DNA of 27,297 nucleotides, taken from UHGV virus genome UHGV-0184544. The stretch is one strand, 5' to 3'. The notes under the pieces were generated by a model. That model worked only from the letters and a program-made list of their open reading frames with translations, had not been told where the DNA came from and ran no database searches. This DNA is from a virus. A program made the position numbers and the translations under genes. Within the stretch, counting starts at the first letter, position 1. Every line of letters starts with the position of its first letter. Below are positions 15,890 through 26,015 of the stretch, piece after piece.

Positions 15890-18033
15890 TGAAAAATGAA
15901 ACTAATACCATGGCGACGAAAAACGACAACGGAGCCACGCCGCGTTTTTCTCAGCGCCAGTTACAGGCGCTTTGTTCTGATATTGACAGTCAGCCTAAAT
16001 GGCGCGATGCCGCAAACAAGGCCTGTGCGTATTACGATGGTGACCAGTTGCCACCGGAAGTTCTCCAGGTGTTGAAAGATCGCGGTCAGCCGATGACCAT
16101 CCATAACCTCATCGCGCCTACCGTTGATGGTGTTCTGGGTATGGAGGCCAAAACGCGGACTGATCTGTTGGTGATATCAGATGATCCTGATGATGAAACA
16201 GAAAAACTGGCTGAAGCTATTAATGCTGAATTTGCCGATGCTTGCCGCCTTGGAAATATGAATAAAGCCCGTTCTGATGCCTATGCGGAACAAATCAAAG
16301 CGGGGCTCAGCTGGGTGGAGGTCAGACGGAACAGCGATCCGTTCGGGCCTGAGTTTAAGGTGTCTACTGTCAGCCGGAATGAAGTGTTCTGGGACTGGCT
16401 CAGCCGGGAGGCTGATTTAAGTGACTGCCGCTGGCTGATGCGCCGCCGCTGGATGGATACCGATGAGGCAAAAGCCACATTTCCGGGAATGGCTCAGGTT
16501 ATCGATTATGCCATTGATGACTGGCGTGGTTTTGTCGATACCACGGTTACTGAAGGCCAGCCCAGTCCGTTGATGAGTGCATGGGAAGAGTATCAGTCAT
16601 GGGATCGACAGCAGAACGAATGGCTTCAGCGTGAACGCCGTCGTGTGCTGCTTCAGGTGGTTTATTACCGTACATTCGATCGCCTGCCTGTGATGGCGCT
16701 CAGCAGTGGCAGGGTGGTGGCCTTTGATAAAAATAATCTGATGCATGCGGTGGCTGTGGCATCCGGGCGGGTGCAGGTGAGAGTCGGGCGGGTAAGTCGT
16801 ATTCGTGAAGCCTGGTTTGTGGGACCGCACTTTATTGTGGATCGCCCCTGCAGTGCGCCGCAGGGGATGTTCCCGCTGGTTCCCTTCTGGGGATACCGGA
16901 AGGATAAAACCGGGGAGCCTTACGGGCTGATTTCCCGGGCCATTCCGGCACAGGATGAGGTGAATTTTCGTCGTATAAAACTGACGTGGTTGCTTCAGGC
17001 CAAACGCGTGATTATGGACGAGGATGCCACCCAGTTGTCAGACAACGAGCTGATGGAGCAGATCGAGCGTCCGGATGGCATTATTAAACTGAATCCGGCC
17101 CGAAAAAATCAGAAAAGCGTTGCTGATGTTTTCCGGGTTGAACAGGATTTTCAGGTTGCCAGCCAGCAGTTTCAGGTCATGCAGGAGTCGGAAAAACTTA
17201 TCCAGGACACGATGGGGGTTTATTCCGCATTTCTCGGGCAGGATTCAAATGCATCGTCCGGTGTGGCGATCAGCAACCTGGTGGAGCAGGGAGCCACAAC
17301 CCTTGCCGAAATCAACGATAACTACCAGTTTGCCTGCCAGCAGGTGGGAAGGCTGTTGCTCGCTTATCTTCTTGATGACCTGAAAAAGCGGCGTAATCAT
17401 GCGGTGGTGATTAATCGCGATGATCGTCAGCGTCGCCAGACCATTGTCCTCAATGCTGAAGGTGATAATGGTGAACTGACCAATGATATTTCAAGGTTAA
17501 ATACACATATTGCGCTGGCTCCTGTTCAGCAGACACCGGCGTTTAAGGCACAGCTTGCACAGAGAATGTCAGAGGTTATTCAGGGGCTGCCGCCTCAGGT
17601 GCAGGCTGTTGTGCTCGATCTGTGGGTTAATCTTCTGGATGTGCCGCAGAAACAGGAATTTGTCGAACGTATTCGTGCGGCGCTGGGGACGCCAAAATCA
17701 CCGGATGAGATGACTCCGGAAGAGCAGGAAGCGGCAGCACAACAGCAGGCGCTGGAGCAACAGCAGGCAGAACTTCAGATGCGCGAAATGACAGGCCGGG
17801 TGGCTAAACTGGAAGCAGAAGCTGCCAGGGCACGCGCGGCTGCGCAACGGGATAATGCTGGCGCACAACGGGATGTCGCCGCGGCACAGGGACAGCGTTA
17901 TGTGGATGCGCTTAACCAGGCACATACGGCAGAAATCATTACCGGCATACAGAATATGGAACAGGAGCAGGAAGTTCTTCAGCAACAGATGCTGCATACA
18001 CTACAACAGCGGATGCATGAAATGCCGCTCTGA
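15889..18033 (+). CDS. Portal protein
   Basis: 714 aa directly after the large terminase (TGATG overlap). Size and a Gln/Ala-rich C-terminal helical region are typical of P22-like portals. Confidence 0.75.
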   Translation: MKNETNTMATKNDNGATPRFSQRQLQALCSDIDSQPKWRDAANKACAYYDGDQLPPEVLQVLKDRGQPMTIHNLIAPTVDGVLGMEAKTRTDLLVISDDPDDETEKLAEAINAEFADACRLGNMNKARSDAYAEQIKAGLSWVEVRRNSDPFGPEFKVSTVSRNEVFWDWLSREADLSDCRWLMRRRWMDTDEAKATFPGMAQVIDYAIDDWRGFVDTTVTEGQPSPLMSAWEEYQSWDRQQNEWLQRERRRVLLQVVYYRTFDRLPVMALSSGRVVAFDKNNLMHAVAVASGRVQVRVGRVSRIREAWFVGPHFIVDRPCSAPQGMFPLVPFWGYRKDKTGEPYGLISRAIPAQDEVNFRRIKLTWLLQAKRVIMDEDATQLSDNELMEQIERPDGIIKLNPARKNQKSVADVFRVEQDFQVASQQFQVMQESEKLIQDTMGVYSAFLGQDSNASSGVAISNLVEQGATTLAEINDNYQFACQQVGRLLLAYLLDDLKKRRNHAVVINRDDRQRRQTIVLNAEGDNGELTNDISRLNTHIALAPVQQTPAFKAQLAQRMSEVIQGLPPQVQAVVLDLWVNLLDVPQKQEFVERIRAALGTPKSPDEMTPEEQEAAAQQQALEQQQAELQMREMTGRVAKLEAEAARARAAAQRDNAGAQRDVAAAQGQRYVDALNQAHTAEIITGIQNMEQEQEVLQQQMLHTLQQRMHEMPL

Positions 18034-18051
18034 AAATCCTGAACTTAACGG

Positions 18052-18077
18052 AACCCCGTCATCGTACGGGGTTTTTT
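18052..18077 (+). terminator. Intrinsic terminator after the portal gene
   Basis: Stem AACCCCGT / ACGGGGTT, loop CATCGT, then TTTTTT. Confidence 0.7.
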
Positions 18078-18190
18078 GTTTCCGGAGATAAGCGTTCCGG
18101 GAGCGGTGCGCTTATTCGCGGGGGCAGCGATAAGCCTTATTTACTCAACCATTCGGATCTGTCCGATAAACAGACCATGCGGAGTTATTT

Positions 18191-19198
18191 ATGGATTTTG
18201 AATTTACGGGTGAAGAAACCCCGGAACAACTGGAAAAAATGCTGGAAGGGCTTGGGGATGTGGATATTGACGGTCACGAACAGGACGGCGTGACAGAGGC
18301 CGCCACAGAAAATCATGCGGATGAGGCAGCACAGACACAGACGGGCGATAACACTGCGGCACCGACGCCGGATGCCAGTGCTGAGCAGACGCAGGACGTG
18401 AAGGAGCCGGAGGCGAAGGGTGTGCTCACCCGCGATGGTAAACACGTCATTCCCTATGAAGTCCTTGAGGCTGAACGTTCCGGTAAGCAGCGGGCCGAAC
18501 AGGAAGCCGCACTTCTTCGGGGACAGATAGCCGAAGAAAAACGCCTGGTTGAACTGCTGACGTCTCAGATCCACCAGGCCGGTATGAAACCCGCACCGTT
18601 ACCGGAAAACGAAAAAATCTCTGATGAGAAGATTGCCCGTATCAGGGATATGTATCCGGAAATTGGTGACGCGGTGGCTTCGCTCATCCGTAAAAATAAC
18701 TATCTCCAGTCCCGTGTTCAGCAATCAGCACAGCAGGCAGAAGGTCATGGTGGTGAGGATTTATCACCGGTTCTTGATGCGATGAATGCCGTGCCGGTGC
18801 TGAAAACGTGGCAGAACTCCGATCCGGATCGCTTCTCGGTTGCCGTATCCATCGACGGGAAGCTCCAGAATGACCCCGCATGGAAAGACAAACCGCTCAC
18901 TGAACGTTTCGCCGAAGTGGCCCGCCGTACGCAGCTTGCTTTCGGTGAAGCCAGTGAGCCGCCTTCTGATGACAAGGCAGACAACACGGATATCCGGAAA
19001 ACGGCGGAAGAAAAAGTGAAAGCCGCTGAACGGGAGATGGCAGTGCCTGCTTCCCCGTCAGAGCTTGGCAACACGGCTTCCGTCGGAACCGGTGATAATT
19101 TTGAACGGTTACTTGGTGCTTCCCATACCGAAATTGAAGCCGCCATGCGAGGCATGACGGACGCTGAAATTGACGCGATTCTGGAAAAACTCGGGTAA
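18191..19198 (+). CDS. Putative scaffolding protein
   Basis: 335 aa, highly acidic, helical/coiled-coil-like, between portal and major capsid. GGAG RBS. Confidence 0.55.
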   Translation: MDFEFTGEETPEQLEKMLEGLGDVDIDGHEQDGVTEAATENHADEAAQTQTGDNTAAPTPDASAEQTQDVKEPEAKGVLTRDGKHVIPYEVLEAERSGKQRAEQEAALLRGQIAEEKRLVELLTSQIHQAGMKPAPLPENEKISDEKIARIRDMYPEIGDAVASLIRKNNYLQSRVQQSAQQAEGHGGEDLSPVLDAMNAVPVLKTWQNSDPDRFSVAVSIDGKLQNDPAWKDKPLTERFAEVARRTQLAFGEASEPPSDDKADNTDIRKTAEEKVKAAEREMAVPASPSELGNTASVGTGDNFERLLGASHTEIEAAMRGMTDAEIDAILEKLG

Positions 19199-19220
19199 CC
19201 ACTGAAGGAGTACTGACGTA

Positions 19221-20435
19221 ATGACCACAGTAACAACAGCCCAGGCGAATAAGCTGTATCAGGTGGCGCTTTTCACGGCTGCCAACCGCAACCGCTCAAT
19301 GGTGAATATACTCACTGAACAGCAGGATGCACCAAAAGCAGTTTCGCCTGACAAGAAAAGCACGAAGCAGACCAGTGCCGGTGCACCGGTTGTGCGAATC
19401 ACGGACCTCAACAAACAGGCCGGTGATGAAGTGACGTTCAGCATCATGCACAAACTCTCTAAACGTCCGACGATGGGGGATGAGCGCGTTGAAGGCCGTG
19501 GTGAAGACCTCAGCCATGCTGATTTTTCCCTGAAAATTAATCAGGGCCGTCACCTGGTGGATGCGGGCGGACGTATGAGCCAGCAGCGTACGAAGTTCAA
19601 CCTGGCATCCTCTGCCAGAACGCTGCTGGGTACGTACTTTAACGACCTGCAGGACCAGTGTGCGATAGTGCATCTTGCCGGTGCCCGCGGTGATTTTGTT
19701 GCTGATGACACCATTCTGCCAACGGCAGATCACCCTGAATTCAAAAAAATCATGATCAACGACGTACTGCCGCCGACGCATGATCGTCATTTTTTCGGTG
19801 GGGATGCGACGAGTTTTGAGAGTATTGACCAGTCTGACCTGTTCACTCTTGCGCTGGTCGATAATCTCTCACTGTTTATTGACGAGATGGCTCATCCGTT
19901 ACAACCGGTACGCCTGTCCGGTGATGAGCTGTATGGCGAAGATCCGTATTACGTCCTCTACGTCACGCCGCGTCAGTGGAATGACTGGTACACCTCCACG
20001 TCCGGCAAGGACTGGAACCAGATGATGACGCGTGCCGTAAACCGCTCAAAAGGGTTTAACCATCCGCTGTTCAAAGGCGAATGTGCGATGTGGCGCAATA
20101 TTCTGGTCCGTAAGTATGCGGGGATGCCGATCCGTTTCTATAAGGACTCAAAGGTCCTTGTATCGAAAAACGATATGGCAGCAACCACAGAGGAGAAGCA
20201 GGCCAAGACCAACATCGACCGTGCCATGCTGCTGGGGGCTCAGGCGCTGGCGAATGCGTACGGCCAGAAGGGCGGCGGCCACTTCAACATGGTTGAGAAG
20301 AAAACGGATATGGATAACCGTACTGAGATAGCAATCAGCTGGATCAACGGTCTGAAAAAAATCCGTTTCCCCGAGAAGAGCGGCAAGATGCAGGATCACG
20401 GTGTTATTGCCGTTGATACCGCAGTGAAGCTCTGA
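19221..20435 (+). CDS. Major capsid protein
   Basis: 404 aa after the scaffold, AAGGAG RBS, followed by a strong terminator as usual for highly expressed capsid genes. Assignment by position and size. Confidence 0.7.
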   Translation: MTTVTTAQANKLYQVALFTAANRNRSMVNILTEQQDAPKAVSPDKKSTKQTSAGAPVVRITDLNKQAGDEVTFSIMHKLSKRPTMGDERVEGRGEDLSHADFSLKINQGRHLVDAGGRMSQQRTKFNLASSARTLLGTYFNDLQDQCAIVHLAGARGDFVADDTILPTADHPEFKKIMINDVLPPTHDRHFFGGDATSFESIDQSDLFTLALVDNLSLFIDEMAHPLQPVRLSGDELYGEDPYYVLYVTPRQWNDWYTSTSGKDWNQMMTRAVNRSKGFNHPLFKGECAMWRNILVRKYAGMPIRFYKDSKVLVSKNDMAATTEEKQAKTNIDRAMLLGAQALANAYGQKGGGHFNMVEKKTDMDNRTEIAISWINGLKKIRFPEKSGKMQDHGVIAVDTAVKL

Positions 20436-20451
20436 TTTTTCCTTTCCCCAT

Positions 20452-20474
20452 GCCGGGTTATCGCCCGGCTTTTT
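20452..20474 (+). terminator. Intrinsic terminator after the major capsid gene
   Basis: Stem GCCGGG / CCCGGC, loop TTATCG, then TTTTT. Confidence 0.7.
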
Positions 20475-20489
20475 CAGGAGTCATTAATT

Positions 20490-20882
20490 ATGGCAAAGAC
20501 TATCCTTGCTCCGTCACTGAGTGAGCGGGTTTATTCAGGTACGCATGGTAATGAGTCGGTGGCAGAAGGTGTGTTTACAGTGAATGCTGCCGAACAGGAA
20601 ACCGTTATTAATCTTCTCTCACTGCCGACTGGCGTTCGCATTAATGGGATCCAACTGATTTCAAAAGGTGGTCTTGGTGGTACGGCGACCGTCAGCGTTA
20701 AATCTGGCAAGCATGAGCTCATTGGTGACAGTGGTGCAGTAACTGCCAGCTTTGCTAAATATGTGCCAGTGGAGCCGTACACCACACTGCGTGACGGGGA
20801 GCTGGTTACGGTCACCATTAAGACAGCTGCTGCGACCGGTACCCTGAATGTTCTGCTGCGTTATACCGTGGTGGGATACTGA
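20490..20882 (+). CDS. Hypothetical virion protein (decoration or head-completion candidate)
   Basis: 130 aa ORF with CAGGAG RBS, between two terminators in the structural module. Confidence 0.55.
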   Translation: MAKTILAPSLSERVYSGTHGNESVAEGVFTVNAAEQETVINLLSLPTGVRINGIQLISKGGLGGTATVSVKSGKHELIGDSGAVTASFAKYVPVEPYTTLRDGELVTVTIKTAAATGTLNVLLRYTVVGY

Positions 20883-20895
20883 TATAAACCTTCCG

Positions 20896-20918
20896 GCCCG
20901 CGTCATGCGGGCTTTTTT
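20896..20918 (+). terminator. Intrinsic terminator
   Basis: Stem GCCCGC / GCGGGC, loop GTCAT, then TTTTTT. Confidence 0.7.
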
Positions 20919-20932
20919 ATCCGGGGAATTAT

Positions 20933-21394
20933 ATGAGCGAGAAAATTGCCGTTGTCTATATCGGCCCCAAACCCGTGAAAAAGGATACCCTTACCGGGAG
21001 TCGTACACTGTTCCCGCGTCTTGAGCCGGTGCATGTTGACAGCGCGCTTGCCTGGCAGTTGCTGGCCTTTCCGGATGTCTGGGTTCGTCATGAAGAGCTT
21101 GATGGTGTGCTCAAAAAGCAACAACAGGATGAGCAGTTGCGGCAGGCACAGCAGGCGCAGGAAAGAGAACAGGTTGCTCTTGCAGAAGCGGAGAACAGTT
21201 TTGTGGTTAGCGTTGGTGGTCAGGATGTGGATTTGAGCAAACTCACGTCCGCACGGCTGGCAACGTTGTGTGAGGCAGAAGAGCTGAATATTCACAAAGA
21301 CCCGAAAGAAACGGCTGATGCATTTCGTGTCCGTGTGCGTGAGGCATTTCGCCGTCGTGTTGCGGAGACTGAACAGCATGGCGGAACTGACTGA
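20933..21394 (+). CDS. Hypothetical structural-module protein
   Basis: 153 aa ORF in the late operon; Gln/Glu-rich central segment. Confidence 0.5.
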   Translation: MSEKIAVVYIGPKPVKKDTLTGSRTLFPRLEPVHVDSALAWQLLAFPDVWVRHEELDGVLKKQQQDEQLRQAQQAQEREQVALAEAENSFVVSVGGQDVDLSKLTSARLATLCEAEELNIHKDPKETADAFRVRVREAFRRRVAETEQHGGTD

Positions 21395-21941
21395 TTTTTT
21401 ACCGTATGTCCGTCGCCATATCAGTGGTCCGCTGAACATTATGATGACGGATGCGTTATCCATGTCGGCAGTGGCATTCTGCCGTCAGTCCCTGTTGTGC
21501 CGCCGTGAAGCCACGCTGTCACCGTCAGCCGGAGAGGACTGTGTGCTGCCATATGACGCGGAGAATGAAGAGTGCGTACATATTATTCGTATCCTCGCTG
21601 ACGGGCGTGAGCTTTTTGCCGGTCATGATGTGGAAATCCGCCCGGGGCGGGTAATGCATTTTGCCTGTTCGCCCGGAGAGGTGAGTGTGCTTTATGCCGT
21701 TGCTCCGAAAGCAGGGAGCCGTCAGGTGCAGGATGAACTGCGGGCATGGTCTGAAGAAGTGGCTGCAGGGGCGCTTGAACGGTTGTTCATGCAGACCGGG
21801 GTTTCATGGTCAGACCCGTCGCGCGCACAGTATTTCTCTGTGCTGTTTTCTGAGGGTATCCGTCGGGCATATCGCGACACACTGGCGACAAGTCCGTACT
21901 CCTCATACCGCAATCCTGTCCGCAGACAAAGGTTTTACTGA
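21378..21941 (+). CDS. Hypothetical structural-module protein
   Basis: 188 aa from the internal ATG at 21378 (MAELTDFLPY...), overlapping the preceding stop. The ORF-track start at 21318 lies inside the upstream gene. Confidence 0.45.
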   Translation: MAELTDFLPYVRRHISGPLNIMMTDALSMSAVAFCRQSLLCRREATLSPSAGEDCVLPYDAENEECVHIIRILADGRELFAGHDVEIRPGRVMHFACSPGEVSVLYAVAPKAGSRQVQDELRAWSEEVAAGALERLFMQTGVSWSDPSRAQYFSVLFSEGIRRAYRDTLATSPYSSYRNPVRRQRFY

Positions 21942-22591
21942 TGACGACGATTACTGAAATCATCGGACGAGTGAACACGCAACTGGTTGACCCGATGATG
22001 GTGCGCTGGCCTCTGGCTGAGCTGTGTGATTATTACAATGATGCTGTGCGGGCGGTGATTCTGGCAAGGCCGGATGCAGGCGCAAGTCTGGAGACGCTGA
22101 ATTGTGTTCCTGGTGCACGTCAGACTTTGCCTGATGGCGCAATACAGCTTCTTGACGTGATATGCCTCAGCGATGGCAGTGCTGTAAAACCGCAATCCCG
22201 TGAGGTGCTTGATGCACAGTATCCCGACTGGCACATGCTGAGGGGGAAACCGGAATGCTTTATCAGCAGTGATCTTGCCCCGCGCGTGTTCTGGCTGTTT
22301 CCGGCACCGGAGGAGGCTGTGAGTGTTGATGCTGTGGTCAGCCGCATTCCGGAGGCGGTGTATGTTCTGACGCAGGATGATGACACGCCTGTACCGCTGG
22401 AAGAGGCTTATGTTAACCCGCTGGTTGACTGGATGTTGTTTCGTGCATTCAGCAAGGATGCAGCCGGTGGTGCAGAGTCAGGACTGGCAGCACAACATTA
22501 TCAGAGTTTTGTTGAGCAGCTCGGGATTAAACAGGGTGCAGACAGTGCATTGTCTGCCCGCAAGAAGGTGTTTAACGGAGGTGGAATGTGA
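21941..22591 (+). CDS. Hypothetical virion/tail-associated protein
   Basis: 216 aa directly upstream of the tail fiber; its stop overlaps the fiber start. Confidence 0.5.
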
Positions 22592-24603
22592 GTGTTGTTG
22601 TTTCGGGGACGCTGAAATCTCCTGATGGTGAGGCAATATCAGGCGCAAATATTACCCTGACGGCGCTGACAGTTTCACCGGATGCGCTCAGCGGCACCAG
22701 TGCGTCAGCAGTGACTCGTGACGGCGGGTATTACGGAATGACGCTGGAGCCGGGGGAGTATGCGGTTTCTGTGACGGTGAAAGGGAAGACTGCTGTCTAC
22801 GGACGTGTGCGTATTGAGGGGACTGAAAGTACGGTGACGCTCAATATGCTGTTACGCCGCAGTCTTGTTGAGGTGAGCATACCCGGAGAACTGCTGACAG
22901 ATTTCCGGCAGATACAGAACAATGTGGCGGATGACCTTGCCACGATTCGTCGTCTGAACGAAGACACGGCGGTGAAAAATAATCAGGCTTCACAGTCGAA
23001 GGAAAGCGCTGCTGCCAGTGCGAAGACTGCATCAGAAAGCGCGAAGGCTGCGACCAGCAAAGCGACGGAGTCTGCACAAAAAGCCAGTGAGGCTGCAGAG
23101 GCGGCGACCCGGGCAGGTGAGTCTGAAAAGGCAGCGGCAGCTGACGCTAAAGAGGCCAGACGACATGCTGAAACCGCCAGAGTGGCTCAGGAGGCCGCCG
23201 GAGACGTTCTTAAACGTGCTGAGGCTGCTACGGTTAGTGCTGAAGAAGCCAGACGTATGGCTGAGAATGCACGAGGACCTAAAGGCGATACAGGGCCGAA
23301 AGGTGATGCTGGTCCTCGTGGTGAAACAGGTCCGGCGGGTCCGCGTGGGGAGAAAGGTGAGCAGGGAGAGCGCGGACCTCAGGGCATACCGGGCCAGAAA
23401 GGTGATACAGGAGAACGGGGACCTCAGGGAGTGCAGGGGCCAGCTGGCGCAACAGGGCCATCTGGCCCACGTGGTGCGACCGGGCCACAGGGAGCAATGG
23501 GGCCGCGTGGTGAAACCGGGGCCAGAGGCGAAAAAGGAGACCCGGGGGGGCCTCAGGGACCAAAGGGGGATACTGGTCCGAGAGGTGAGCCGGGGCCGGC
23601 AGGAGCAAAGGGAGAGCGCGGTGAGACCGGACCTGCGGGGCCGAAAGGGGAACCCGGGGAACGTGGTCCGCAAGGATTACAGGGCCCCGCCGGAGAGAGA
23701 GGTGAACCGGGTCCGGCAGGTCCGAAAGGTGAACGAGGCGAAGCTGGACCTCAGGGACCTCGTGGGGAGCCAGGCCCGGCGGGCAGCGCAGCAAATGTGG
23801 CAGATGCGACGACGGCACAGAAGGGAATTGTGCAGTTAAGCAGCGCAACGGACAGTGATGATGAAACGAAGGCAGCCACACCGAAAGCTGTGAAGGCGGC
23901 AATGGATGAGGCCAGGGCAGCGAAACAGAAGGCAGAAGAGGTTGCGACAACCCGCCCGTCGGGAGAAAGCATACCTGGACCGAAAGGTGACAGGGGCGAG
24001 CAAGGACCGGCAGGTCCCACAGGTCCGAAAGGTGAGCGCGGTGAACCCGGACCTCAGGGGCCTGCAGGACAGAAAGGTGAGCAGGGCCTCCGTGGGCTGC
24101 AGGGGGCGACAGGACCTGCGGGAGCAGTGGGGCCCGCAGGCCCACGGGGACCGGCTGGTGCAGCTGGTCCCAAAGGTGATGCAGGCCCGACCGGACCCCG
24201 GGGTCAAAAAGGTGATACAGGACCTGCAGGTCCGCAGGGACCAGCTGGCCCGGCAGGCCCACAGGGGGTTGCCGGAAGGGACGGCAATGTTTCCACCGGG
24301 AAATATGCGGTTGGTTCTTATGTTTTTGGCGTGTCCTCTGTCTATGCTGACGGCGAAGGCTTATTTTCATCAGGGATATATGAAAACATTCAGGGTAGCT
24401 CCATTGATCTGATTTCAATACAGACAACACAAACAGGCGCATCAACACCAAATCAAATCTGGTTTTTGAAACTGGAGGAGGACATTCCGGGGGTGTGGCG
24501 GGCATTTAAACCCGCCGCATATATTGATCTGATGCCAGAAGGAATGCAAGGAGGAAAGAACTCGATGTTTAACTTTATTACTCTTTTCCAGCGGATAGCG
24601 TAA
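22588..24603 (+). CDS. Tail fiber protein with two collagen-like Gly-X-Y domains and a phage-tail-fibre repeat
   Basis: Long uninterrupted [30 protein letters not shown]... runs (~23275-23785 and ~23977-24285). Between them, [30 protein letters not shown] matches the tail-fibre repeat motif. GTG start overlaps the upstream stop. Confidence 0.8.
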
Positions 24604-24614
24604 CGAGGTACGGC

Positions 24615-25208
24615 ATGATAATAGCGATCAGTGCGGTTAAGGATCCGGTATATACCAGGCAGGGATGTATCAACTGTCTGGTGAAACTCACCGGAGTTGA
24701 CGAGGAGGAGACGGACTGGCTTCCGTTTACGGCGACACCAACGGACGAAGCCCCTCATGGAAAAGAACTCTGGCAGGCACTGAACTCAGGTCAATATGGT
24801 CAAATCGCGCCGTATACTCAACCGGAAGATGCGGTGGAAAAAGCCAGACAACAGAAAATTAATGAGATCAACGCCTGGCGTAATGCGATGGAAGCGGCGA
24901 ACTACACGTTTGAGCACAATGGGCGTAAATGGGACTACGGGAAGTCAACGCAGACGCGTCTTGAGCCGTCGGTGGCTGCCGCGAAAGCAGGAATACTGCC
25001 GGAGGGTTTTTTCTGGACGGATGCGGAGAATAACGACGTCCCGATGACGGCTGGGGAGCTGATGGCACTCAGTGAGGCGGCGGAGAAGGCGATGTTCACC
25101 AAAGGGATGGAAATTCATGTCAGACAGCGCACGATGAAAAAAGAGATTGAAGCGCTGGGTGATGCGGAAGCTATACTGGCGTATAAGGTCGGCATGGCTG
25201 ACAGGTGA
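24615..25208 (+). CDS. Tail fiber assembly (chaperone) protein, Tfa-like
   Basis: 197 aa immediately after the fiber with GAGG RBS. Size, position and general resemblance to Tfa proteins. Confidence 0.65.
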   Translation: MIIAISAVKDPVYTRQGCINCLVKLTGVDEEETDWLPFTATPTDEAPHGKELWQALNSGQYGQIAPYTQPEDAVEKARQQKINEINAWRNAMEAANYTFEHNGRKWDYGKSTQTRLEPSVAAAKAGILPEGFFWTDAENNDVPMTAGELMALSEAAEKAMFTKGMEIHVRQRTMKKEIEALGDAEAILAYKVGMADR

Positions 25209-25335
25209 AAAAAAGAGGGGCGCTCCAGCCCCTTGCTACAAAGCTATGGCTAAATAAAGAATACTCAGGTCGAGGAAATAATCTGGCAATGATAATTAAA
25301 GGAGATGCAACGGCCTCCTTCACCCCTGTCAAAGA

Positions 25336-25628
25336 TAAAAAACTGGGGAGTGCGTGCTCCCCGAGAGCATGATACTTGTGGTTGATAGTTATTTTTATCC
25401 GGCGACAAAGATATTGAGATGAGGTCGCGGATGCAATACAGAATTTTCGTATTGCATGGTAACTGCTGATTCCTGAAACTGAAAGTCGTCATGAAACTGT
25501 AAGCGAAAAAACGGGGAGACGGCACGCTCCCCAAGGTCATACATGAGATAGTGGTGTTTTTATAGTCGAAAGAATAATTGCATAAAAAGAGTGTAAATTA
25601 AACATTCAGGGGATACAGAATTTTCGTA
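25336..25628. repeat. Two diverged ~120-170 bp direct repeat units in an AT-rich spacer
   Basis: Each has an A6 run plus GGGGAG...CTCCCC hairpin (25337-25362; 25506-25532) and the 16-mer ATACAGAATTTTCGTA (25436-25451; 25613-25628). Confidence 0.7.
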
Positions 25629-26015
25629 GGCTGAGGGATTGCTGAAAATAATTTAGTGCGTCCTTCAATGGTCACTCAATAGTCATCAGATTGTGCTGAT
25701 GTAAACAGTTAAGCACAATTTGATTATTTGACTTTCTTCTTTTTGTGACTAACTTCACAATTAAAGATGTAACCGTATACAAATTGTTGATGAATAAAGA
25801 GACAGCATAAGTGGCAGGCCAGTCGTAATGCGGATATCCCTTCGCGGACGTGATATCACCGACGTTATAGTAAGGAAATTCCGAAAAACTTTATATTAAA
25901 ATTCGGAATTTCTTCAGGAGTAAGCTCATGAGAGCGGCGAGACATCAGATTTTCTTTATATATCCGATGTTGAACTGTTTTATTTGTATACAGATAATTT
26001 TATAGGGTATACCAC

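Follow-up and report, generated by a model that had tools for sequence, protein, structure and literature searches.

What role can be played by three strong transcription terminators that all point leftward, lie within 330 nt and have no leftward gene to serve? This question is raised by the 807-bp spacer at positions 25209-26015 of UHGV virus genome UHGV-0184544, a stretch of 27,297 nucleotides (hereafter the window) that represents a lambdoid, 933W-like prophage with all of its long genes on the plus strand. The spacer separates a DUF4376 tail-fibre-assembly-like gene (24615-25208, plus strand; Pfam PF14301, E=1e-19) from an eib-like trimeric autotransporter adhesin gene (26016-27086, plus strand; YadA_anchor, PF03895), whose relatives in RefSeq and GenBank are the Eib immunoglobulin-binding adhesins (RefSeq label: YadA C-terminal domain protein). 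A preliminary description of the locus had noted that the spacer is AT-rich, and indeed its GC content is 31-45%, against 50-57% in the flanking tail gene. The answer that we favour, tentatively and at somewhat less than an even chance, is that the spacer carries a single conserved leftward non-coding unit, an orphan linked to eib, which is followed by backstop terminators and is partly duplicated in the window.

A terminator scan of positions 24900-26300 returned five terminator-like sites, every one of them on the minus strand, where shuffled sequences gave 0.9 ± 1.1. Three of the five are strong, with five G-C pairs each in stems of 6-7 pairs that are followed by T6-T7. The U-tract of terminator 1 (25208-25233, minus strand; stem 25233-25216, AGGGGC/GCCCCT then T7, -11.6 kcal/mol) adjoins the stop codon of the DUF4376 gene; terminator B (25337-25362, minus strand) has the stem 25362-25345, GGGGAG-N6-CTCCCC, followed by T6 (-11.6 kcal/mol); and terminator A (25506-25533, minus strand), which is lineage-specific, has the stem 25533-25512 followed by T6 (-12.5 kcal/mol). 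The same scan found no plus-strand terminator between the tail-fibre-assembly-like gene and eib, and on the plus strand no T-run follows any of the three strong hairpins. With a G+C-rich stem followed by a U-run, all three are predicted intrinsic terminators, and the leftward orientation assigned to them in the preliminary description is borne out by the scan, the U-tracts and the predicted energies. A weak but conserved fourth hairpin (25297-25322, minus strand), also flagged as terminator-like by the scan, occurs in two sequence forms (-9.5 and -14.8 kcal/mol), the second having an altered right arm that gives a longer stem followed by a U-rich tail. When 20 kb of the window (7300-27297) were scanned for minus-strand terminators of comparable strength, defined as a stem with at least five G-C pairs followed by at least six T, a single site was found besides those of the spacer, at 7751-7732.

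The spacer is present in 27 of 5426 complete E. coli genomes, in 71 places that are all chromosomal and have no annotation underneath, and at every locus examined its neighbours are a DUF4376 tail-fibre-assembly-like gene on one side and eib on the other. A sensitive blastn search of the 5426 genomes with 25330-25680 and 25190-25345 recovered the same 27 only, with no homologue outside eib loci, and a 22-base pattern scanned against one genome per species gave no match. The spacer is also found in phages PhiR5/PhiR12 and in P-EibA (AF151091), and pattern scans added spacer-bearing contigs from IMG/VR and human-gut metagenomes. In most related loci the BLAST homology begins inside the DUF4376 gene, most often at 24836, continues through the spacer to the eib signal peptide and resumes in the C-terminal part of eib, while the phage backgrounds differ: P-EibA is a lambdoid phage with J-lom-stf genes, and the window has an N4-gp56-type capsid. 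Taken together, these homology extents and the differing backgrounds suggest that the spacer, with the 3' part of the DUF4376 gene from about 24836, travels with eib. Mosaic breakpoints recur among the eib loci at 24836 (inside the DUF4376 gene), at 26042-26092 (after the eib signal peptide) and at 26801 (the start of the conserved C-terminal part), which indicate that the eib cassette is probably mosaic, with an exchangeable passenger domain.

Altogether 43 distinct full-length haplotypes were compared, and they fall into three structural forms. The two-unit form seen in the window accounts for 27 of them; a P-EibA-type form, in which a 121-nt deletion (25430-25550) has removed terminator A and one of the two copies of a 16-mer, accounts for 15; and the third form is a single contig (L034) with a deletion that runs in register from one 16-mer to the other, an event that direct repeats would be expected to undergo. 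The terminators fare differently across this set. The stem of terminator 1 is intact in 42 of the 43 haplotypes, and in a divergent haplotype family its loop is altered and longer by 2 nt while all 12 stem bases and the U-tract are kept; in that family 9 of 28 positions differ within the terminator 1 segment, none of them in the stem, as do 18 of 96 in the adjacent unit C (25237-25336), which lies between terminators 1 and B. Terminator B occurs in all 43: in 37 it is strong, at -11.2 kcal/mol or better, and in six a single mismatch in the stem weakens it to between -6 and -7 kcal/mol. Terminator A is intact in 20, slightly weakened in one, degenerate (-2.7 kcal/mol) in six, all of the two-unit form, and deleted in 16.

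The most conserved part of this leftward side is none of the terminators but the 67 nt directly 5' of terminator B, a nearly invariant segment (25363-25429, minus strand; the B body) that we regard as a candidate small RNA (sRNA) body. Nucleotide diversity (pi) is 0.010 in the B body, against 0.043 in terminator B and 0.053 upstream of the B body (25430-25505); it reaches 0.036 at the 3' end of the tail gene, 0.068 in terminator 1, 0.058 in the body of unit C and 0.075 in terminator A. The A body (25534-25612, minus strand), at the corresponding place upstream of terminator A, is the most variable segment of the spacer (pi 0.12), with two haplotype families about 23% apart and a 2-nt indel, while pi falls to 0.003 in the adjoining 16-mer copy A and is about 0.011 in 25629-26015 when the 11-nt repeat segment 25664-25685 (pi 0.029) is excluded. 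Constraint appears from these values to fall on two parts of the spacer, the 67-nt island 5' of terminator B and about 400 bp by eib, with unit A unconstrained. Between the window and haplotype L072, the B body differs at 1 of 67 positions and its flanks at 18 of 96 and 13 of 76 (17-19%), for which the binomial probability is about 7e-5 by our own estimate, made after seeing the data. The B body and terminator B are kept in all three structural variants, and the RNA that they would form folds better than shuffled sequences (z -2.3 to -3.2). In the predicted fold an unpaired A/U- and CA-rich stretch is followed by a hairpin and then by U6, an arrangement typical of the 3' module of Hfq-type sRNAs (Ishikawa 2012 and Otaka 2011, as cited in PMC4104026). 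An orphan terminator preceded by a sharply conserved body, at an intergenic site where there is no gene for it to end, is a classical hallmark of genes for small RNAs.

The preliminary description had placed two of the hairpins in diverged direct repeat units that hold the 16-mer, and for the window this holds good: units A and B have 74% column identity with an overall similarity of z=9.9, and the 16-mer is copied exactly. The 16-mer, ATACAGAATTTTCGTA, has exactly two copies, at 25436-25451 (copy B) and 25613-25628 (copy A), where 0.01 would be expected; these positions are one base to the left of where a rough reading would put them, and no further copy within 3 mismatches lies nearby. The likeness of the units is confined to the 16-mer and to about 35 nt at the 3' end plus the hairpin, and the intervening 73-80 nt show no significant likeness (z=0.7), which makes the repeat a pair of shared boxes and not an evenly diverged unit. 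Unit C resembles units A and B no better than shuffled sequence does, and a third repeat copy ending in terminator 1 was rejected since unit C is unrelated to them. The proposal of two tandem leftward units describes the window, but not a conserved layout, because 16 of the 43 haplotypes are without terminator A and one 16-mer, six more have a degenerate terminator A, and at most unit B is under clear constraint. As to whether the repeat units might be absent from other eib prophages, unit B is found in all 43 haplotypes, whereas unit A is missing in 16.

The 16-mer itself was taken for a near-palindrome and a possible regulator site, and its symmetry does exist but is weak, with 10 of 15 positions symmetric by our count. 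A perfect inverted repeat with 9-bp arms, ATGCAATAC-N9-GTATTGCAT (25431-25457), encloses copy B; it is restricted to the two-unit form, and 2 of those 27 haplotypes have substitutions in it. Copy B is missing from 16 of the 43 haplotypes and is dispensable; the nearly invariant block by eib begins, on its left, with copy A. An exact run of 16 bases in two units that are about 74% identical has a probability of roughly 0.2-0.4 by our estimate and is not very improbable, and the 16-mer may belong to a promoter or to a 5' end, may serve as an operator or may have survived by chance. The deletion in L034 shows that the 16-mer can act as a recombination substrate. An invertase crossover site of the gix/pix/cix kind was rejected, as the copies are direct and not inverted and, at the eib loci examined, the flanks that carry annotation have no invertase gene annotated; a match of 12 of 16 positions between the reverse complement of the 16-mer and the right arm of a stem-loop upstream of eib was judged compatible with chance in AT-rich DNA (about 0.2, our estimate).

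Taking these observations together, we infer from the sequence a leftward transcript, with a start and a function that can be sketched as follows. The distal two-thirds of the spacer would be a leftward non-coding module that moves with eib, its core being the B body (25429 to 25363) ended on the minus strand by terminator B (25362 to 25337), and its product a candidate trans-acting small RNA some 100-190 nt in length. Transcription would start in an invariant block at 25613-25760, which contains 16-mer A, an 11-nt repeat and a palindrome, and would run divergently from eib; from a single leftward promoter there, the transcript would reach terminator B or, where terminator A is present, could halt earlier at that site. 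All three structural variants place the B body leftward of the invariant block, which fits a single leftward promoter in it. The window haplotype would represent a partial duplication in which the 5' box (the 16-mer) and the 3' box with its terminator were doubled, giving rise to the non-conserved unit A, and terminator 1 and the hairpin at 25297-25322 would catch read-through at the stop codon of the tail gene and spare the late genes antisense transcription.

The whole of 25613-26015 is nearly invariant across the haplotypes. Next to 16-mer A, an invariant stretch (25629-25663, minus strand) holds candidate leftward promoter elements picked out by a position-weight matrix, with a -10 TAAATT at 25655-25650 and the pair TTTTCA-N17-GAAAAT, a weak match whose -10 lies inside 16-mer A. 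The best consensus match is TTGAGT-N18-TAAATT, with a predicted start near 25643 and its -35 inside the 11-nt tandem repeat TTCAATGGTCA (25665-25685; Tandem Repeats Finder period 11, 1.9 copies). This repeat, which has 16-mer A on one side and the palindrome on the other, varies in copy number between haplotypes (1, 2 or 3), each copy amounting to about one helical turn, and makes or removes the best leftward -35 match. The palindrome (25685-25724) has 13-bp arms and a 14-bp centre; its arms are unchanged in all 43 haplotypes, eight of which differ at a flanking base only, and its symmetry produces TTGTGC-N17-CACAAT on both strands, so that it could be an overlapping divergent promoter pair or an operator.

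Several results weigh against a small-RNA unit. No leftward promoter could be singled out: the scan gave 3 sites against 3.3 in shuffled sequences, no match is kept in every structural variant, the -35 of TTGAGT-N18-TAAATT is lost in the 29 haplotypes with one repeat copy, and a further match, TTGCAT-N17-TATCTT, is missing in the P-EibA-type variant. Pairing of the B seed region with targets in the plus-strand RNA of the window, and of the three candidate RNAs with the eib leader, was no better than that of shuffled RNAs. The single internal hairpin predicted in the B body is disrupted by the majority allele, six of the 43 haplotypes have the weakened terminator B described above, and compensatory covariation is absent, the terminator stems being invariant and hence uninformative in this respect. 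The B island also overlaps a plus-strand open reading frame (ORF) of 17 codons and could be a DNA-level site. In the literature on eib expression we found no mapped RNA ends and no mapping of sRNAs or promoters, that on the phages PhiR5/PhiR12 yielded nothing of use either, and none of the 27 carrier genomes is known to be that of a model strain with published sRNA maps.

Some of these results are what would be expected if the hairpins formed a one-way terminator array without any functional RNA, stopping spurious or bidirectional leftward transcription from the AT-rich eib region before it enters the tail genes. Three to four leftward terminator-like hairpins within 330 nt, the last of them at the stop codon of the tail gene, several weak minus-strand promoter-like sites in the AT-rich 5' region of eib and in the spacer, and the finding of neither a target nor a clear dedicated promoter all agree with such an array, and its redundancy would allow terminator A to be lost. 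It leaves unexplained, however, why the 67 nt 5' of terminator B are far more conserved than the terminators, why the module follows eib across phage types and not the tail operon, and why a distant relative has no leftward terminator, and we consider an array without an RNA possible though rather unlikely. The preliminary description had likewise suggested a terminator barrier between the late operon and the moron, which stands for leftward transcription, stopped at the tail-gene stop codon, but fails for rightward transcription, as no plus-strand terminator was found that could halt late transcription into eib. A small RNA and an insulator are mutually compatible readings. If the hairpins were instead incidental, the 16-mers, the B body, the palindrome and the 11-bp repeat could make up a DNA-level control region of eib that binds H-NS-type silencers or IbrA/IbrB. 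Expression of Eib in strain ECOR-9 reportedly requires ibrAB. The near invariance of 16-mer A and of all of 25613-26015, and a palindrome adjoining a repeat that varies by one helical turn, speak for such a region, as does the response of eibG mRNA to static growth, oxygen, pH and temperature by a mechanism that is unknown (PMC4352079). On the other hand, a clone with 168 bp upstream of eibG is enough to complement an eibG deletion from a multicopy plasmid (PMC13534694), the dyad of the 16-mer is weak, its second copy is dispensable and no more copies lie nearby, and U-tracts conserved on a single strand would be left without explanation; a control region of this kind alone seems to us quite improbable.

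About as improbable is the idea that the spacer is evolutionary debris with no present function, what remains of earlier insertions, duplications and deletions at a hot spot of recombination that follows the tail-fibre genes. The three structural variants, the 11-nt copy-number polymorphism, the variable A body, the decaying terminator A, a module boundary inside the tail-fibre-assembly gene and the mosaic passenger domains of the adhesins would all be expected of debris, but the stem and U-tract of terminator 1 are kept despite about 19% divergence in the adjacent unit C, and an island at 1.5% between flanks at 17-19% is unlike neutral decay or long-tract gene conversion. A coding role is more remote than any of these. 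The plus-strand 17-codon ORF (25369-25422; MILVVDSYFYPATKILR) has a synonymous change as its sole substitution in the 43 haplotypes, while 3 of the 13 flanking B-body positions vary; nevertheless, it has no usable ribosome-binding site, as a single nucleotide separates GAGAG from the ATG. Unit A also offers short hydrophobic ORFs on the minus strand, and two of 49 codons are called here in the PhiR5_2 annotation, yet those of 49 and 91 codons were rejected, as they cross terminators, are destroyed by or absent from the deletion variants and shift frame with the 2-nt and 11-nt indels. The single leftward non-coding unit with its backstop terminators remains the explanation that we prefer. In a more elaborate version, which we hold to be unlikely, it would be an undescribed small RNA co-mobilised with eib and divergent from it, driven by a palindromic control region that serves eib as well and whose strength is set by the number of 11-bp repeat copies; such an RNA would link adhesin expression, with its dependence on static growth and IbrAB, to host or phage control, and the second unit would be a young paralogue with a different body.

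Two prophage adhesin loci, in STEC1585 and SCU-171, have the same gene order as the window, but what they share with it is limited to the end of the DUF4376 gene and some 170 bp ahead of the adhesin start codon, a length that corresponds to the 168 bp sufficient for eibG complementation from a plasmid. This limited sharing indicates that 25211-25846, in which all terminators are leftward, is specific to the eib lineage. In STEC1585 a plus-strand terminator follows directly after the DUF4376 gene and there are no leftward terminators. At the distant locus L078, a hairpin followed by a T-run, that is, a plus-strand terminator, is found after the DUF4376 stop codon (2780-2806), where the window has an A-run before the hairpin (25208-25233), and the flanks of the two hairpins look alike (GGTGGAAAAGAGGGA vs GGTGAAAAAAAGAGGGG); comparison of L078 with the eib lineage suggests that terminator polarity may have been switched between them.

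The remaining features of the eib side lie in the part of the spacer closest to the gene. The AT-rich stem-loop at 25875-25912 (plus strand) is the only feature that the annotation of AF151091 marks in the spacer, and in the distant adhesin loci (L078, about 3008-3052; L079, about 3028-3064) its position and pairing are kept while the sequences of its arms have changed, which suggests a functional leader or operator structure. It lies just upstream of the ribosome-binding site of an upstream ORF of 25 codons (25928-26005, plus strand), whose ATG is preceded by AGGAG at a distance of 7 nt and whose end lies 10 nt short of the eib start. A counterpart of 22 codons with HQIFFIxPM exists in STEC1585 and none in SCU-171, and the substitutions in this ORF among the eib haplotypes are mostly non-synonymous, making it weak as a candidate for coding. 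The best predicted sigma-70 promoter of eib is TTGAAC-N17-GATAAT at 25970-25998 (plus strand), and a strong terminator of -19.4 kcal/mol is predicted downstream of the gene, at about 27110-27145 (plus strand). ARAGORN found no tRNA or tmRNA gene in 24900-26300. Elsewhere in the window the prophage encodes a cI-like repressor, a helicase, a primase, NinG, a sialate-esterase-like protein, structural proteins and a tail fibre with collagen repeats (22588-24603, plus strand).

Eib proteins are immunoglobulin-binding, serum-resistance and chain-forming adhesins of Shiga-toxin-producing E. coli negative for the locus of enterocyte effacement and of commensal E. coli. Wild strains express them poorly, and the route by which growth conditions act on them is unknown (PMC4352079). 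The region of about 800 bp upstream of eib has been in GenBank since 2000. If the module does encode an sRNA, it would add another example to the regulatory RNAs that accompany virulence-related morons and would offer a concrete handle on eib regulation; if it is a terminator stack only, it would exemplify a moron cassette that shields phage late genes from its own divergent transcription. For the prophage sRNA field either outcome would be incremental and not surprising.

How does such a unit compare with known systems? It has adjacent units in the same orientation, with a shared 5' box and 3' terminator and a differing middle, in which it recalls tandem paralogous sRNAs such as OmrA and OmrB; in contrast to that pair, one copy in the spacer is dispensable, and the likeness is one of resemblance only, the shared 5' box being a putative part of the RNA. 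The classical phage moron consists of promoter, gene and terminator (Juhala et al. 2000), and eib fits this pattern, being an AT-rich gene with a control region of its own upstream and a strong plus-strand terminator downstream, inserted after the tail-fibre genes; the spacer unit differs in lying upstream of eib and running in the opposite direction, and no plus-strand terminator parts eib from the late operon, whereas in L078 one does separate the adhesin from it.

Prophage-borne sRNAs are present in the window itself. Two full-length copies of STnc100 (RF02076) lie at 7044-7237 and 7513-7721 (plus strand; 139.9 and 129.8 bits), with a degenerate, weak third copy at 7273-7448, all of them upstream of the sialate-esterase-like gene (7923-9926). 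The spacer unit has in common with STnc100/PasD that it is carried by a prophage, with the STnc100 copies at 7044-7721 of the same window; those belong to an unrelated family without a match in the spacer and are encoded on the plus strand, close to the antiterminator and the lysis region. The Pas sRNAs (bioRxiv 10.64898/2026.05.13.724894) were set aside as candidates, since PasA, PasC and PasD are located near the Q antiterminator, lysis and esterase region and not in the spacer. The strong minus-strand terminator at 7751-7732, which faces the STnc100 copies, has an 8-bp stem with 7 G-C pairs followed by T8 and no Rfam match; by analogy with the sRNAs of Tree et al. downstream of pR', it could end a short convergent sRNA.

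The closest parallel is offered by the lambdoid prophages of enterohaemorrhagic E. coli (EHEC), in which short sRNAs that run against the direction of the late operon are found at moron sites, as paralogues with conserved 3' and variable 5' parts (PMC4104026). A search of 24500-27297 on both strands gave no match at E<=1 to any Rfam family, including AgvB, AsxR, Esr41, STnc100, IsrG, RF02702 and RF02703, and the putative spacer unit differs from the AgvB/AsxR group in lying at the end of the tail-fibre genes and not downstream of pR', and in a predicted size that is probably larger. Like AgvB/AsxR and EcOnc01-03 (Tree et al. 2014, PMC4104026), however, it is found in a lambdoid prophage, beside a moron, with a predicted direction against the late operon and with predicted intrinsic terminators, and like them it has paralogues, alike at the 3' end and variable towards the 5' end, on horizontally moving DNA. 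By this analogy, the spacer unit would work in the manner of the moron-site sRNAs of EHEC without being a member of their family.

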